Positions 31,800-38,047 of a stretch of 64,000 nt of DNA are shown here, one piece after another. The notes under the pieces were generated by a model, which saw nothing but the letters and a program-made list of their open reading frames with translations, did not search any database and was not told the DNA's origin. Source of the stretch: Dehalococcoidia bacterium (GTDB taxonomy: Bacteria > Chloroflexota > Dehalococcoidia > UBA2979); NCBI GenBank assembly GCA_965219085.1, contig OZ244720.1, positions 3,241,962 to 3,305,961 of the forward strand, given 5' to 3'. The position numbers were made by a program, and so were the translations under genes. Position 1 is the first letter of the stretch; each line of letters begins with the position of its first letter.

Positions 31800-32459
31800 T
31801 CAGTTGCAGAACGGCAGCCGGAGCTCCTCGAAGTCGTTCGAGGGCGCAGCACGCAACGCGGGCGGGATGCACCCGGCGAGGTCGTTGCCCGCGAGACTGA
31901 TGACCCCGAGCGACCAGAGGTTGCCGAGTTCGGGCGGGATCGGCCCGTACAGCTCGTTGCCGTCGAGATGCAGGCGCCGCAGAGATCGGAGGTTCCCGAG
32001 TTCCGCCGGGATCCACCCGGTCAACTCGTTTGACCCGAGATACAGGCGCTGCAGCGCGGTGAGGTCGCCCAGTTCCGGTGGGAGCGGCCCGCGCAAGCGG
32101 TTGCCGGCGAGCCGCAGGCTCGTGACCCGTCCCGCGCTGTTCGTGGAGACCCCGTACCACTCCCCGACGGGCCGGTCGCTCAGCCAGTGCGTCGCGTCCA
32201 ACCAGGACTCGCCCCTGGTCGCCTCGTAGAGCGCCACCAGCGCGGCCCGGTCCGGCGAGGGGCCGCGAACGGTCGTCGATGGCCGCGCCGTGCCATTGGC
32301 ATACCCGCGGGCGGCCGGGGCTGCGGTCTCCGTCGGGGCCGGTTCAACGACGAACGCCTCGCCGTCTCCTCCACGCGCGTCCCAGGCCGCGATCACGATG
32401 ATGACCACGGCGCCGAGCGCCGCGAGGACCGTTGCCGCACCCACTGCACGCGTTGACAT
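31800..32459 (-). CDS. Membrane-anchored leucine-rich repeat protein (plant-type LRR)
   Basis: TM, DRAALVALYEAT...W.GV cap, repeats L.G.IP.ELGNL..L..L.L..N. Confidence 0.88.
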   Translation of the reverse strand: MSTRAVGAATVLAALGAVVIIVIAAWDARGGDGEAFVVEPAPTETAAPAARGYANGTARPSTTVRGPSPDRAALVALYEATRGESWLDATHWLSDRPVGEWYGVSTNSAGRVTSLRLAGNRLRGPLPPELGDLTALQRLYLGSNELTGWIPAELGNLRSLRRLHLDGNELYGPIPPELGNLWSLGVISLAGNDLAGCIPPALRAAPSNDFEELRLPFCN

Positions 32460-33132
32460 CGTCGCGCCACCCTAGCAGGGTGCTGAAAAAGGCGCGGCCA
32501 TCTGGCAGGATAGCGAAGGCGGCGGGGGCGTAGCCTGGGAGGCAGCCCCGTGCGAGGCGACGCTGAGCGTCAGACCAACATGTTGCTGGCGGTGACGCCG
32601 GACTCCTTCATCCCGGACGACCACCCGATCCGACGCATCAAGCCGATCGTCGATGCAGCGCTGCAGCGGCTCTCGCCGCTCTTCGGCACGATGTACGCAA
32701 CGAGCGGGCGGCCCTCGATCCCGCCCGAGCACCTGCTCAAGGCGAGCCTGCTGATCGCGCTCTACTCGATCCGCAGCGAGCGCCAGTTCAGCGAGCGGCT
32801 GCGCTACGACCTGCTCTTCAAGTGGTTCTTGGACCTCAACATCTCAGACGCGCCGTTCGACGCCTCGACCTTCTCCAAGAACCGCGAGCGCCTGCTCGCA
32901 GCCGATGTCGCGCGCGCCTTCTTCGCCGAGGTGGTGGCCGAGGCAAAGCGCCGCCGGCTGCTCTCGGCCGAGCACTTCACGGTGGACGGGACGCTGCTCG
33001 AGGCGTGGGCGTCGCTCAAGAGATGGCATGAGGGCCGGTCTCTTCCTCAAGGGGGATACTCGCCCCCGAAACAGCGGCCTCGATGGGCCAGAACGGCTCT
33101 TTGCGGAGCTTTGACGAGGTAGGAGACCGGCC

Positions 33133-34221
33133 GTGCAGCAGGATACCGCAACGACGTGGAGCATTGAGGGCAAGGAAGGGTCAGGGGTCACCATCGGCCT
33201 CGACGTGGGCGACCGCTACACCCACGTCCACGCCCTCGGCGCCGGCGGGGAGGTGGTACGTGAGAGGCGCGTCCGCACCACGACGGCAGCGCTGGGCATG
33301 GTGCTGACCGGCCTCCCCCCATCGCGGGTCGTGATCGAGGCGGGGCCGCGCTCGCCGTGGCTGAGCCGCCTCATGGCGGACCTCGGCCACGAGGTGGTCG
33401 TCGCCAACCCGCGCCAGGTCGCGCTGATCGCCGGCAGCCAGCGCAAGACCGACCGGCTCGACGCCGAGTGGCTGGCGCGGCTGGGGCGCTTCGACCCCCA
33501 GTTGCTCGCCCCGATCCGCCACCGCAGCGAGGCGAGCCAGCACGACCTCGCCGTGGTGCGCGCCCGCGACGCGCTGGTGCGCTCGCGGACGCTGCTCATC
33601 AACCACGTGCGCGGGGCCGTCAAGGCCTGCGGAGCCGCGTTGCCGTCGTGCACGGCCGAGGCGTTCCACCGCAAGACGGCGGACCACATCCCCGACGGGC
33701 TGCGCCCGGCGCTGCTGCCGCTGGTGGAGGCGATCGGCGAGCTGACCGCGCGCATCGCGGCGGCCGGCCGCGAGATCGAGGCGTTGTGCGAGGCTCACTC
33801 CGAGACCGCGGCGCTGCGCCAGGTCACGGGCGTCGGGCCGATCACCGCGCTCACGTTCGTGCTGACGATCGAGGATCCTGGGCGCTTCCCGAAGAACCGC
33901 GAGGTCGGCGCCTACCTCGGGCTCGTGCCGAGGCAGCGCGACTCGGGCGAGCGCACGCCGCAACTCGGCATCGGCAAGAGCGGCGATCCGCACCTGCGGC
34001 GGCTGCTGGTGCAGGCCGTGCACTACATCCTCGGCCCCTTCGGGCCCGACACCGACCTGCGCCGCTGGGGTGAGCGCTACACCGCTACGGGGGCCGGTAA
34101 CGCGAAGAAGCGCGCCGTCGTGGGCGTCGCGAGGCGGCTGGCGGTGCTGCTGCTCGCGCTGTGGAAGACCGGCGAGGTCTACGAGCCGTTGCGCGACGCC
34201 GCGGCGCAGGAGGCCGCGTAG
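33133..34221 (+). CDS. IS110/IS1111 DEDD recombinase (transposase)
   Basis: IGLDVG, VIEAG, KTDRLDA (DEDD), GVGPITA, YLGLVPRQRDSG (catalytic Ser), AVVGVARRLA. Confidence 0.95.
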   Translation: MQQDTATTWSIEGKEGSGVTIGLDVGDRYTHVHALGAGGEVVRERRVRTTTAALGMVLTGLPPSRVVIEAGPRSPWLSRLMADLGHEVVVANPRQVALIAGSQRKTDRLDAEWLARLGRFDPQLLAPIRHRSEASQHDLAVVRARDALVRSRTLLINHVRGAVKACGAALPSCTAEAFHRKTADHIPDGLRPALLPLVEAIGELTARIAAAGREIEALCEAHSETAALRQVTGVGPITALTFVLTIEDPGRFPKNREVGAYLGLVPRQRDSGERTPQLGIGKSGDPHLRRLLVQAVHYILGPFGPDTDLRRWGERYTATGAGNAKKRAVVGVARRLAVLLLALWKTGEVYEPLRDAAAQEAA

Positions 34222-34557
34222 CAAGGCGCGGCGCCGAAGCAACCGACCAGGAGAGCGAGACTGAGACGGACCTGGGAGGAGGCCCAGCAAACCAACCACT
34301 GCACGTGATGCCGGGCAACGGGCGACTGCGAGGCGGTAGCGGTCCAACAAGGACGTTCAAGAGTTGGCAGCGCCCCCTGGAAGCAGGATGTGCCTTCATG
34401 CACCGGGCCCGATACGTGGCCCATCAAAGAGTGCGGATAGAAGCTCGGCACAGGCTCCGTCAGGGGACATCACGAGCGGATCGGCCCCGATGTCGAGGAG
34501 CGCCACGCCCCGAGGAGGAGGCCGCCACGTCGGCCTTGCAGAAAGACCGTCCCTCAT
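34222..34557 (+). ncRNA. Putative seek/bridge RNA of the IS1111-like element (ends approximate)
   Basis: Guide segments GGCGGTAGC and GTTCAAGAG match the two target flanks; ATAGAAG matches the donor junction; all sit in stem-flanked loops. Confidence 0.75.
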
Positions 34558-34714
34558 AGAAGCTACCGCCCGCGCGACGAGCAGGAGCCACCCCTGGGCG
34601 GACGCAACCCGGATGTCGACTTCCGCGGGCGGCGGCGCAGCCGCGATACGCATAGTTCCGGCACGGACCCGGAGGCGCGGCTGTACACGAAGACACCCCC
34701 AGGACGCTAAGGGG

Positions 34715-35938
34715 TCAAGCAGCGAGGTCCTCGTGGGTGTAACGGTGTCCCCAGGCGGTCGTCTCGTCGTAGGGCAAGCGGCGCTTCAGGCAGCCATGTA
34801 GGTAGCCGACGAGACGGTTGCCGAGGGCGCGGAGCGCCTGGTGGTGGAGGTCGCCCGCGGCGCGCCGCCGATCGTAGAACTCGCGGCAGCCGGGGCTGGC
34901 CTGCAGGGAGCACAGCGCCCACTGGTCGACTGCGTCGTAGAGGCGCCGGTTGCGGACGAAGCGGGCTTTCACGGTGTGCTTGCGGCCGGATGCTACCGTC
35001 AGCGGCGACGTGCCGGCGTAGTTCCTGCGGGACTTCGCCGACTCGTAGCGTTCGGGGTCATCCCCGAACTCGCCAAGCACCCGGGCGCCGAGGACCACGC
35101 CGAGACCGGGCAGGGAACGGTAGATACCGGCGTCCGGGTGCTGCTCAAAATGGCTCGCGAGCTCGGCCTCGAGCTCCTTGATCTGACGGTTGATCTCGCC
35201 GATCACCCTCATTGCCGCACTGGTGCTCGCGGCGAATGCCTTGCTCACCGCGGGCGGAGCCTCGAGCTGCGGTGAGCGCAGCGCGTCGCGGACCTCGGCG
35301 GCGCGCCGCTCGATGTTGCGCCGGCGGCCGCCGCGGCGCAGCGCGGAGCGGATCTGGGTGATGCTCAGCCGCGCCGCCTCGCGCGGGCCAGGCGCTGTCG
35401 CCAGCACGCCCACCGCGTCGTCGTGCGCGAGGTCGGGGAAGGCCTCCAGCGCACCCGGAAAGTACTCCCTGAGCGCGTTGCGCAGCCGGTTGGTCTGGCG
35501 GACGCGGTCCCAGATCAACTGCTGGTGGGCGCGGGCGAGGATGCGCACCGCGGCGGCTTCGTCGCTGTCGCCGGCGACCTCCCGGTGGTTGTGCCGGTCG
35601 GTGCGGACGAGGTCGGCGAGCAGCTTCGCGTCGCCGGCGTCGGACTTGGCGCCGCCGACGTGGTGGCGGTCGCGGTAACGCGACGCCGAGCGCGGGTTGA
35701 TGGCGTAGACGTGGTAGCCGGCCGCGAGCAGTGCCGCGACCCAGGGGCCGCGGTCCGTCTCGATGCCGACGATCACCTCACCCGGCCCTGAGGCGTACCC
35801 GGCGACCAGTCCGTGCAGGGCAGTGATGCCCTCCACCCCTTCGGGCAGACGCCGGGCGGCGAGCCGCTCGCCCGCGTCGTTCATGAGATGGACGTCGTGG
35901 TGGTCTTCGGACCAGTCATCGCCCAGGTACAAGGCCAT
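34715..35938 (-). CDS. IS110 DEDD recombinase (transposase)
   Basis: LGDDWS, GIETD, KSDAGDA, SLPGLG, YAGTSPLTVASG, ALRALGNRLV. Confidence 0.95.
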   Translation of the reverse strand: MALYLGDDWSEDHHDVHLMNDAGERLAARRLPEGVEGITALHGLVAGYASGPGEVIVGIETDRGPWVAALLAAGYHVYAINPRSASRYRDRHHVGGAKSDAGDAKLLADLVRTDRHNHREVAGDSDEAAAVRILARAHQQLIWDRVRQTNRLRNALREYFPGALEAFPDLAHDDAVGVLATAPGPREAARLSITQIRSALRRGGRRRNIERRAAEVRDALRSPQLEAPPAVSKAFAASTSAAMRVIGEINRQIKELEAELASHFEQHPDAGIYRSLPGLGVVLGARVLGEFGDDPERYESAKSRRNYAGTSPLTVASGRKHTVKARFVRNRRLYDAVDQWALCSLQASPGCREFYDRRRAAGDLHHQALRALGNRLVGYLHGCLKRRLPYDETTAWGHRYTHEDLAA

Positions 35939-35985
35939 CGTGTTTCAGTTCCTCTCCCGCTTCGCGCTGCTCGGTGCGACCCGGC

Positions 35986-36188
35986 GGGTTGGTTCCTGCG
36001 ACGGCCTAATGGATCAGTGCTCGATGGCACGACACCCCATGAGTGCTGCAGAACAACCCGGAATACCAGCAGGGGCTCGGTCTTCGTGAAGCGGTCCAGA
36101 AGCCGCAGGGATCAGCTGAGAGCTCACCGGCTGGCAGGGTCCAGAACCAGTCTGCCAGAGAACCTCTGGCCGCTGGTCGGGCCCCATT
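35986..36188 (-). ncRNA. Putative bridge RNA with target- and donor-binding loops (ends approximate)
   Basis: Four guide segments (36107-36115, 36082-36088, 36031-36038, 36006-36012) match the target and circle junctions in the IS621 order. Confidence 0.82.
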
Positions 36189-36811
36189 AGGGGTCGGGGC
36201 AGACGGCGAAGCTCAGCTACATGGGCCATCTGCTCACCGAGAACCGTCACGGTCTGGTGCTGGACGTGGAGTTGACCGAGGCGAACGGGTACGCCGAGCG
36301 CGAGGCGGCGGTCACGATGCTGGAGCGCAGCGTGAGCGGCTGCGGGACGCTGGGCGCCGACCGCGGCTACGACACGCGCGGCTTCGTGGCGGCGCTGCGC
36401 GCTCGCGGCGTGACGCCGCACGTGGCGCAGCACGACCGCGGCCGCCGCAGCGCCGTGGATGGGCGCACCACGCGGCATCGCGGCTACAGGCAGAGTCAGA
36501 AGCGGCGCAAGATCGTGGAGCAGGTCTTCGGCTGGATGAAGACCGTGGGCGGCGGGCGCAAGCTGCGCTTCGTGGGCCGCGAGCGCAACCGCTGTTGGCT
36601 GGAGCTCACCGCCGCCGCCTACAACCTCGTGCGCATGGCCACGCTCGAGACCGCCGCGGCGTAGGCGCAGTGCGCCCTCCGCCCCGCCAGGGAGCCCTCA
36701 GAGGCCCCCGGGGGCAGGTCAGGAGGCCACGATCACGAACCCGGAGGCGGCTTGAAGCCGCCTCTCGCCACTCCGAGACCCCGGAAGGCGCTTCTTCAGC
36801 ACCCTGCTAGC

Positions 36812-37859
36812 TGTAGTGTCCCGGGACGTTGTTTACAGGCGTGAGGCGGGGACAGCCCCGCCGATACCGCCGTGCGGTCGGCGAGCATTGTAGCGATAGA
36901 GCCAGCGCGGGAGCACGTGGAGGCGTTCGGCGTTGGAGCGGTATGGCCGGGCGTACGCCCATTCGTTCTGCAGGATCTGGATGAAGCGCTCGGCCTTGCC
37001 GTTCGTCTGCGGCCGGTAGGGTCGGGTGTGCAGCAGCTCCACGCCCGCGGCGGCGGCCGTGCTGCGGAAGCTGCGCGCGACGGTGTAGGCCTTGGCGTTG
37101 TCGGTCAGCACGCGCCTGACGCGCACGCCGCGCCGGCTGAACGCCGCGAGCGCCTGCTCGAGGAAGGCACTACAGCTCGCGGCCCGCTCGTCGGGCAGGG
37201 CGGCGACGTACGCGTAGCGGCTGTGGTCGTCCACGGCGACGTGTAGGTACTCAAGGCCCAGCGACCGTCCCCGCTGCGGCCCGGAGCGCGTCTCGGCGAA
37301 GCCGGGTGCGATGCGCTTACCGCCACCCTCGGGGATGCGCCCCAGCTTCTTCACGTCGATGTGCAGCAGGTCGCCGGGGGCTGGGTGCTCGTAGCGGACC
37401 GTCTCGCGGGTGACACGATGCAACCGGTCGAGGCGGTTGAGGCCAAAGCGCCTGAGCACGGCGTAGACCGTGGAACGGGCGAGCCCGAGCGCCCAGGCGA
37501 TGCGATGCGGCCCGAAGCCCGCACTGCGGCGCACGGCGCAGATGCGTTGCTCCAGCTCGGGTGCGGTGCGCCGGGGGTTCGAGCGCGGCGCCGAGGTGCG
37601 GTCCTCGAGCCCGTCCGCTCCTGCCTCGCGGAAGCGCCGCACCCACTTCGCGACCGTTGGGCGCGAGACCGGGAAGCGACGGGCGACCTCGGCCTGCGGC
37701 CAGCCGTCCTCCACCTCCCGGACCAACTCCAACCGGGTGACCGGCGTCAGACGCGCGTTACGATGTGCCACGAGAGGCTCCTCCCCTGCTACTGGTGCTT
37801 GCAACACACACAGCAGCAGGCGGAGCCCCTCACCTGCAACAACCTACGTGGGAACTACA
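36812..37859 (-). mobile_element. IS481-family insertion sequence
   Basis: TGTAGT...ACTACA ends with imperfect IRs; 6-bp duplication GCTAGC at 36806-36811 and 37860-37865. Confidence 0.9.
36833..37771 (-). CDS. IS481 transposase
   Basis: HRNARLTP, LHIDVKK, VDDHSR, LTDNA, PQTNGKAERF; GTG start after GGAGGAG. Confidence 0.95.
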   Translation of the reverse strand: MAHRNARLTPVTRLELVREVEDGWPQAEVARRFPVSRPTVAKWVRRFREAGADGLEDRTSAPRSNPRRTAPELEQRICAVRRSAGFGPHRIAWALGLARSTVYAVLRRFGLNRLDRLHRVTRETVRYEHPAPGDLLHIDVKKLGRIPEGGGKRIAPGFAETRSGPQRGRSLGLEYLHVAVDDHSRYAYVAALPDERAASCSAFLEQALAAFSRRGVRVRRVLTDNAKAYTVARSFRSTAAAAGVELLHTRPYRPQTNGKAERFIQILQNEWAYARPYRSNAERLHVLPRWLYRYNARRPHGGIGGAVPASRL

Positions 37860-37899
37860 GCTAGCGGCGTCCGAGGCTGAGCCGCGCTCGCGGGGCTGC

Positions 37900-38047
37900 G
37901 CAGCCGCAGCGGCGTGGGCCAGCCGTACGGGCACGCTTGCGCGAACTCCCGCGCCTGCCTTGTCGCTGCAATCATCGACGACCGCACGGCGGCGTCGGCA
38001 GGGTCGTCCCCGCCTCCCGCCTGTACACAACCTCCGTGGGAACTACA
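37900..38047 (+). pseudogene. Degenerate IS481 3'-end relic in the opposite orientation
   Basis: Encodes LPRLPCRCNHRRPHGGVGRVVPASRL versus LPRWLYRYNARRPHGGIGGAVPASRL in the intact copy; ends ACAACCTCCGTGGGAACTACA. Left boundary approximate. Confidence 0.7.

Follow-up and report, generated by a model that had tools for sequence, protein, structure and literature searches.

A 64,000-nucleotide stretch of a Dehalococcoidia bacterium genome (assembly GCA_965219085.1, contig OZ244720.1, forward-strand positions 3,241,962 to 3,305,961; hereafter the window) carries an IS110-group insertion sequence (IS), referred to here as IS110B, within the transposase gene of an IS5-family element. IS110B occupies 34693-36190 on the minus strand (1498 bp including one CT core dinucleotide) and displays the arrangement of its group, a recombinase gene standing between a 250-nt left end and a 22-nt right end. 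The features described below indicate that it is very probably an intact and recently active element working like IS621, with a bridge RNA encoded in its left end. The transposase gene of the host IS5 (DUF772 and DDE_Tnp_1 in Pfam) is split into three parts, 32472-33020, 34561-34690 and 36191-36811, and harbours a second IS110-family element, IS110A (Table 1). On the plus strand, the junctions of IS110B read TACACGA-AG-ACACCCC on the left and CCCCATT-AG-GGGTCGGGG on the right; in the sense of the element, the target is CCCCGACCC-CT-TCGTGTA and the predicted circle junction is GGGGTGT-CT-AATGGGG. Seven empty IS5 copies of the same genome have a single core dinucleotide between abutting flanks, where two cores surround IS110B, which fixes the ends of the element to the base. 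The comparison of filled and empty IS5 copies also revealed the absence of terminal inverted repeats and of any scar.

Table 1. Coordinates of the features of IS110B and of its surroundings in the window
Feature	Position	Strand	Basis
Host IS5-family element	32472..36811 (approx.)	+	Pfam, BLAST of the pieces, contiguous empty copies
IS110A, second IS110-family element (IS1111-type), in the same IS5 gene	33021..34560	+	Pfam; junctions, guide-like right-end segments
Core dinucleotide CT, right-end junction	34691..34692	-	Filled versus empty sites
Right end, 22 nt; last 7 bases GGGGTGT = left donor (LD)	34693..34714	-	Junction reading
TTGACC, presumed -35 box, over the stop codon	34713..34718	-	Promoter completed only in the circle
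Recombinase gene, 407 aa, DEDD RuvC-like and Tnp domains	34715..35938	-	Pfam
Left end, 250 nt, non-coding; bridge RNA, then recombinase leader	35939..36188	-	Sequence
Donor-binding loop module (outer stem, internal loop, inner hairpin)	35985..36060	-	Helices 3 and 4
Right donor guide (RDG)	36012..36006	-	CCAUUAG, reverse complement of CT+AATGG, 7/7
Donor-loop hairpin GUGC/GCAC	36030..36017	-	Sequence
Left donor guide (LDG)	36038..36031	-	GGGGUGUC = last 7 right-end bases + core C, 8/8
Target-binding loop module (outer stem, internal loop, inner hairpin)	36065..36135	-	Helices 1 and 2
Right target guide (RTG)	36088..36082	-	CACGAAG, reverse complement of CT+TCGTG, 7/7
Target-loop hairpin GCGG/CCGC	36106..36091	-	Sequence
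Left target guide (LTG)	36115..36107	-	CUGAUCCCU versus target top strand CCGACCCCT, 7/9 identical
Bridge RNA 5' stem-loop	36136..36185	-	Predicted in single-sequence folds
Core dinucleotide CT (AG on +), left-end junction	36189..36190	-	Once in empty sites, twice around the element

As described by Durrant et al. (2024, PMC11208160), the IS621 bridge RNA recognises its target through the first internal loop and its donor through the second; in loops of this type, 8-9 nt on the 5' side are in top-strand sense and 4-7 nt on the 3' side complement that strand. Four segments following this rule were found in the left end of IS110B, with lengths of 9, 7, 8 and 7 nt for LTG, RTG, LDG and RDG, respectively, in the IS621 order and strand sense. 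Both differences between the LTG and the target place a U opposite a C and would thus form rU:dG wobbles with the bottom strand. The LDG leaves the second core base unmatched, and the three other guides of the window copy all cover CT. When the mononucleotides of the 250-nt left end were shuffled 100000 times, the RTG 7-mer appeared in 1656 of the shuffles, and the corresponding counts were 788 for the LDG 8-mer and 896 for the RDG 7-mer; at least three of the four guides were present in 2 shuffles and all four together in none, the product of the single-guide frequencies being ~1e-7 before order and position in the loops are demanded. A preliminary description, made from the letters of this stretch, had proposed the same target and circle junction, which both junction sequences bear out, as well as the four guides and their two hairpins, each of which was recovered at its proposed position. 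Its attribution of the whole to the IS621 layout with a CT core agrees with the rule given in PMC11208160.

The recombinase displays both domains of the IS110 family in Pfam (PF01548 at 2.7e-37 and PF02371 at 4.1e-11). Of the solved structures, only the IS621 transposase (8wt6_A) is matched, at E 5.6e-8 and over two short stretches. The catalytic residues reported for IS621 are D11, E60, D102, D105 and the Ser-Gly loop S241-G242 (PMC11208158). In the HMMER alignment, D8, D100, D103 and S317-G318 of the IS110B protein face D11, D102, D105 and S241-G242, while its E60, within an IE(T/A) motif, is offset by two residues from E60 of IS621; all five catalytic residues are present in IS110B. Antisense to the recombinase gene, at 35033-35114 on the plus strand, the Rfam family Ms_AS-4 gives a match (63.9 bits for a gathering score of 50, E 1.7e-8) that probably reflects the conservation of IS110-type coding sequence in the seed of that family.

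A promoter could be completed by the circularization of the element. The presumed -35 box TTGACC lies in the right end over the stop codon of the recombinase gene, and a -10 box TCTAAT is formed by the last right-end base, the core CT and the first three left-end bases AAT. Across the circle junction, TTGACN followed by a 17-18 nt spacer and TCTAAT was found in 16 of the 17 distinct end combinations of the homologs, the seventeenth being the window copy itself, whose TTGACC is followed by a spacer of 19 nt; of the six genomic copies, four have one G fewer and thereby a spacer of 18 nt. A sigma70-like site was sought in the integrated element and none was found. In the family model of PMC11208160, the promoter is reconstituted across the junction of the right end with the left end (RE-LE junction) and none is expected in the integrated state; the predicted junction promoter of IS110B agrees with it. 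By analogy with the family, we infer for IS110B its transcription, the binding of the RNA by the protein, the circular form and the chemistry. The element would excise as a circle, the joining of the right end to the left end placing the -35 box before the core-spanning -10 box, and this promoter would drive transcription of the left end, yielding a bridge RNA of ~200 nt composed of a 5' stem-loop, the target loop and the donor loop. Bound by the DEDD/Ser recombinase, this RNA would pair through its donor loop with the circle junction GGGGTGT-CT-AATGG and through its target loop with CCGACCC-CT-TCGTG inside the IS5-family transposase gene, and strand exchange at the CT core would yield a scarless insertion of IS110B.

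The possibility that IS110B is a silent relic in this genome, with a bridge RNA that can still be read and is no longer used, is the alternative that survives best, and we nevertheless regard it as unlikely. It is in line with the lack of a promoter-like site in the integrated state and with the contigs of four public runs, which gave no evidence of a circle or of excision. A joint of 34692 to 36195 in these contigs, with four other letters between, was rejected as an excision product as it corresponds to the empty IS5 allele. Contigs of RNA libraries, ~93% alike, cover 35998-36191 (part of the left end) and parts of the gene; they come from relatives, may be DNA carry-over and say nothing on expression. 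A BLAST search of the 3.3-Mb genome retrieved six copies of IS110B that are 99.8-100% identical, together with one relative at 82.6%, and the lack of a bridge RNA match in the latter also fits a relic. This relative, at C1 893433-894622, was discarded as a bridge RNA carrier because a covariance model of the bridge RNA (R1) finds none there; it aligns to IS110B over the coding part only and is probably a truncated copy beside A4, one of the guide variants of the genome listed below. On the other side, the six copies differ at only 0-3 of 1498 positions, with the 407-aa frame open and all catalytic residues in place, and the family model itself predicts that the integrated element has no promoter (PMC11208160).

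R1 finds exactly the six copies. Five of them have identical flanks and all lie at one site of IS5, where all 12 of the target's positions outside the core pair with the guides when wobbles are included, so that the cognate target can be said, as in the preliminary description, to have been captured in place. The repeated site would say nothing about targeting if IS110B had entered IS5 a single time and the five IS5-borne copies had arisen by composite copying, either through mobilisation of IS5 in trans or through segmental duplication. The IS5 parts of copies c1, c2 and c3 indeed differ by 1-3 bases, and all three have IS110A at the same place; they may be duplicates of a single composite. 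Had the composite been copied as a whole, its IS5 and IS110B parts should show equal divergence, yet the IS5 parts differ at 22 (c1-c4), 51 (c1-c5) and 53 (c4-c5) of ~930 bases while IS110B differs at 0-1 of 1498. Moreover, c4 and c5 are devoid of IS110A, and the sixth copy lies outside IS5. The divergence of the IS5 hosts of c1, c4 and c5 implies at least three separate insertions into IS5, plus one elsewhere, and a single entry therefore appears quite improbable in comparison with repeated insertion of IS110B at a matching site.

The sites left empty were also considered. Among the 336593 CT sites of the genome, no unoccupied one pairs at 12/12 non-core positions and 19 pair at 11, of which 7 correspond to the empty IS5 allele CCGCTCC-CT-TTGTG. 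The fully pairing IS5 allele is occupied in 5/5 cases and the GCTCC/TTGTG allele in 0/7, a contrast that fits discrimination by the guides and does not prove it. The two alleles (34684-34692 with 36191-36199) differ at 3 of the 14 guide-covered bases; at the protein level, the changes from ACG to ACA and from GGG to GGA are synonymous and that from TCG to GCG replaces Ser by Ala. In terms of pairing, the empty allele has one true mismatch and one rG:dT wobble, and one rU:dG wobble becomes a Watson-Crick pair. Over the whole IS5, occupied and empty lineages differ at 31 of ~930 bases, with a rough binomial of ~0.01 for target enrichment. Five of the empty copies (e6-e10) are identical and probably represent a still-active IS5 lineage, the two others being more diverged.

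The structure and the guides of the putative RNA were examined in relatives of IS110B, comprising the best 80 loci of 251 from species-representative genomes, mostly metagenome-assembled genomes (MAGs) of Dehalococcoidia, with 66-86% protein identity. Once the truncated locus L063 and two loci with no recognisable left-end start (L028 and L042) had been set aside, 77 loci and the window gave 78 left ends, 33 of them distinct. The closing stems of the preliminary description were recovered, CCAGC/GCUGG as part of a stem of 13-14 pairs closing the first loop and GGGUUG.../...CAACCC closing the second, or donor, loop. The unconstrained minimum free energy (MFE) fold of the 207-nt RNA predicts the 5' stem-loop, both outer stems and the hairpin of the second loop, with extra pairs inside both loops; when the guides are held unpaired, the MFE fold is close to the consensus with a few additional pairs (-76.7 versus -75.1 kcal/mol for the consensus). 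The loops stay open in this constrained fold, with the guides placed in them and not buried in stems, the arrangement that the preliminary description had named as a refutation.

A hand-written structure of 35 pairs, consisting of the two outer stems and the two inner hairpins, was then evaluated on the 33 distinct left ends. Standard pairs occupy 94.5% of the cells, versus 29-47% when the 3' partners are slid by 1-3 columns. Fourteen pairs are changed on both sides, versus 9.0 in shuffles (1/500 as high), and the covariation score is 0.269, versus 0.169 in shuffles (0/500 as high). Helices 1 and 2, in the target loop, are paired at 98.3% and 100% with 6 pairs changed on both sides, and helix 3, the donor outer stem, at 87.1% with 8 such pairs; helix 4, the inner hairpin of the donor loop, is invariant and hence uninformative either way. 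RNAalifold on MAFFT alignments missed the donor outer stem because of register shifts. The duplex is predicted singly in 33/33 homologs, and in 27 of them at most 5 of 100 shuffled arms are as good; the weakest cases are L077 (37 of 100), L067 (25), L080 (12), L025 (11), L076 (10) and L046 (7).

The left-end scaffold is conserved among the 33 sequences (69-79% mean column identity), and its two most variable blocks coincide exactly with the LTG and the RTG. Both flanks are available for 63 of the 72 distinct insertion rows, and these define 18 guide classes; L070 and L073 are cut by contig ends. Own targets are matched on average at 5.24/7 non-core positions by the LTG, versus 2.98/7 in cross pairs, and at 4.68/5 by the RTG, versus 2.07/5. 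At the level of classes, the guide-target statistic reaches 9.75/12 versus 5.11 in permutations (sd 0.55, max 7.51), and none of 20000 permutations was as high. The last LTG base is not U in 8/18 classes, leaving the second core base unmatched. The donor ends are nearly invariant in the clade, and donor covariation consequently rests on a single position, where the LDG G-to-A variant GGGAUGUC accompanies the right end GGGATGT in L070-L073, L075 and L076 (three related elements). The covariation of guides and targets among homologous left ends, which the preliminary description had proposed to look for, is thus present and accompanied by that of the stems; its view of IS110B as a natural programmable recombinase and bridge RNA pair holds solely in the sense of an apparent natural reprogramming among relatives. 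Two relatives of IS110B from another MAG, L045 and L046 (around 2253 and 3745), also occupy an IS5-family gene, 57-74% identical to that of the window; their site, GCCGCCGC-CT-ACAACC, is close to its 3' end, and their RTG fits at 5/5. The same motif is intact in the IS5 of the window (~36610-36640). R1 matches 9 of 41 genomes including that of the window, with 7/18 other genomes of the genus, 1/6 other genera of the family and 0/16 other families of the class, a patchy distribution that is as expected for a mobile element.

Another reading is that the guide-like matches act in the absence of RNA, being subterminal repeats and sequences resembling the target that the protein would read on DNA, or that they arose by chance. 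It would account for the complementarity of the RDG to the left-end terminus (an inverted repeat at the DNA level that RNAalifold pairs in 33/33 sequences), and the public-run contigs yielded no RNA evidence. It is scarcely credible, since the variable blocks follow the flanking DNA outside the element across relatives as a fixed protein surface cannot, they lie in internal loops whose closing stems carry the compensatory changes that are the mark of RNA, the four matches occur together in none of the shuffles, and RNA guidance is experimentally established for the IS110 family (PMC11208160, PMC11187229).

Several observations nonetheless weigh against the interpretation of IS110B as an element guided by a bridge RNA of the IS621 type. 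Regarding the RNA itself, a wobble-tolerant LTG pattern occurs in 9054 of the 100000 shuffles, making the LTG match weak on its own; the folding energy of the whole 252-nt left end is ordinary (z = -0.24, 69/200 shuffles folding as well); and a search against Rfam 15 gave no family match for the left end (E up to 1), that of 32000-38000 returning only Ms_AS-4, in coding sequence. Of the 22 public runs, the assembled contigs of 4 were compared with the element, and no RE-LE junction was found in them. Among relatives, L045 and L046 match their left target at only 1/7, the right flank AACCC of L002 and L026 does not fit their own RTG, L080 has one LDG mismatch, and L014 and L022 have one RDG mismatch each. 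Within the genome, the sixth copy is inserted at GGGATCT-CT-TCGTG, where the right side and the core are perfect and only 9/12 positions pair; the insertion splits an open frame (139 + 50 aa) for which Pfam gives no match. The contrast between occupied and empty alleles relies on independent lineages numbering ~3 versus ~3 and is confounded, since c1-c3 are possibly duplicates and e6-e10 are identical. Furthermore, 8 sites that match IS110A are unoccupied, and emptiness is therefore not necessarily a sign of rejection.

IS110A sits 130 bp from IS110B, with its recombinase gene at 33133-34221. Its inverted repeats, CCCTCAT/ATGAGGG, are subterminal, and in its right end of 340 nt GGCGGUAGC and UUCAAGAG fit the IS5 flanks while UUCAUGC and AUAGAAG fit its own ends; its core is CT when the opposite strand is read. 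The matching of these blocks was done by eye and covers only six copies, and the right end looks like an IS1111-type bridge RNA at the sequence level. Relatives of IS110A with 85-87% identity and differing guide-like blocks are located at C1 1936775-1938289, 1259819-1261333, 2848474-2850003 and 891783-893319. Two of their sites are in DDE_Tnp_1_4 frames and one in an rve/rve_3 frame at YNTKRPH codons, the remaining one being 75 nt after a Transposase_mut (IS256-type) frame. Four classes have a left-flank block that fits, whereas a fitting right-flank block is seen in A_win and A2 and, in part, in A6. For A4, the predicted target was sought in intact form, yielding only two look-alikes with 2 mismatches. 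A further relative, at C1 340394-341911, occupies the usual site of an IS5 copy that has diverged. It has the same right end as A2/A3, with guide-like blocks that suit another target, and one possibility is that this mismatch resulted from an exchange between copies after insertion.

Other insertion sequences were also observed in and around IS5. L089 (C1 1803400-1805400) and L090 (C1 3090650-3092300) are IS110B-bearing IS5 copies with further insertions, one of the DDE_Tnp_1_4 type with CTAC on both sides and the other of the Mutator family (Transposase_mut). The extra insertions in the IS5 copies c3 and c5 were rejected as IS110 relatives, being of the DDE type (DDE_Tnp_1_4 and Transposase_mut). 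The DDE_Tnp_1_4 element found in an IS5 copy contains the A2-flanking sequence. In the window, an IS481-type transposase gene (rve, rve_3 and LZ_Tnp_IS481; 36833-37807, minus strand) starts 22 bp past the right end of IS5, and this part of the genome is an insertion-sequence pile-up.

Five guide variants were distinguished in the genome (IS110B, IS110A, A2/A3, A4 and A6). Four of them have their junctions within transposase frames of other insertion sequences, IS5 twice, DDE_Tnp_1_4 and rve, and the fifth has an IS256-type neighbour; in another genome, L045 and L046 hit a different site of a homologous IS5 gene. This raises the tentative idea, which we hold to be possible rather than likely, that RNA-guided elements of the IS110 family act here as parasites of other insertion sequences. 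If true, it would point to an arms race between selfish elements in which guide reprogramming alternates with target escape, and the unoccupied, substituted IS5 alleles would fit such a scheme. The literature searched contained no IS110 elements aimed at transposase reading frames, and the supplementary target tables of PMC11208160 may hold such cases.

Bridge RNAs are predicted in 85.7% of the catalogued IS110-group elements (PMC11208160), and with the mechanism already known, the presence of one in IS110B was to be expected. The locus is of interest as a compact natural data set, comprising six near-identical copies with base-exact boundaries and, side by side in one genome, filled and empty alleles of the target. 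With the relatives, it also offers 18 naturally reprogrammed guide pairs on a near-constant scaffold, a possible source of orthologues and of hypotheses on mismatch tolerance. Finally, it hints that such elements use the genes of other insertion sequences as multi-copy landing sites that are harmless to the host.

IS110B can be compared with several known systems. Like IS621 of Escherichia coli (PMC11208160, PMC11208158), it combines DEDD RuvC-like and Tnp domains with a Ser-Gly loop, a predicted left-end RNA in which a 5' stem-loop precedes the target loop and the donor loop, a CT core, a promoter that would be completed across the circle junction, and scarless insertion. It differs from IS621 by a recombinase of 407 aa, compared with 328 residues in the IS621 PDB chain, with low protein similarity, and by an RTG of 7 nt, that of IS621 being described as 4 nt and extendable to 7. 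A small departure is the second core base missed by the LDG and, in 8/18 classes, by the LTG. The IS621 target is reported to be a repetitive extragenic palindromic (REP) element, whereas that of IS110B is the coding sequence of another insertion sequence. As in ISEc21 and the IS1111/IS110 seekRNA systems (Siddiquee et al. 2024, PMC11187229), the guide RNA of IS110B would be encoded upstream of tnp, and its relatives appear redirected by the replacement of target-matching blocks, as described for ISEc11 and ISXne4 (PMC11187229); unlike the seekRNAs of 70-100 nt and their target matches presented in that work, IS110B also has a readable donor loop. Lastly, by its location inside IS5, IS110B resembles the IS110-family elements with a fixed target in another mobile element, but these hit non-coding terminal repeats, whereas the site of IS110B lies within the transposase frame and its insertion inactivates the IS5 gene.

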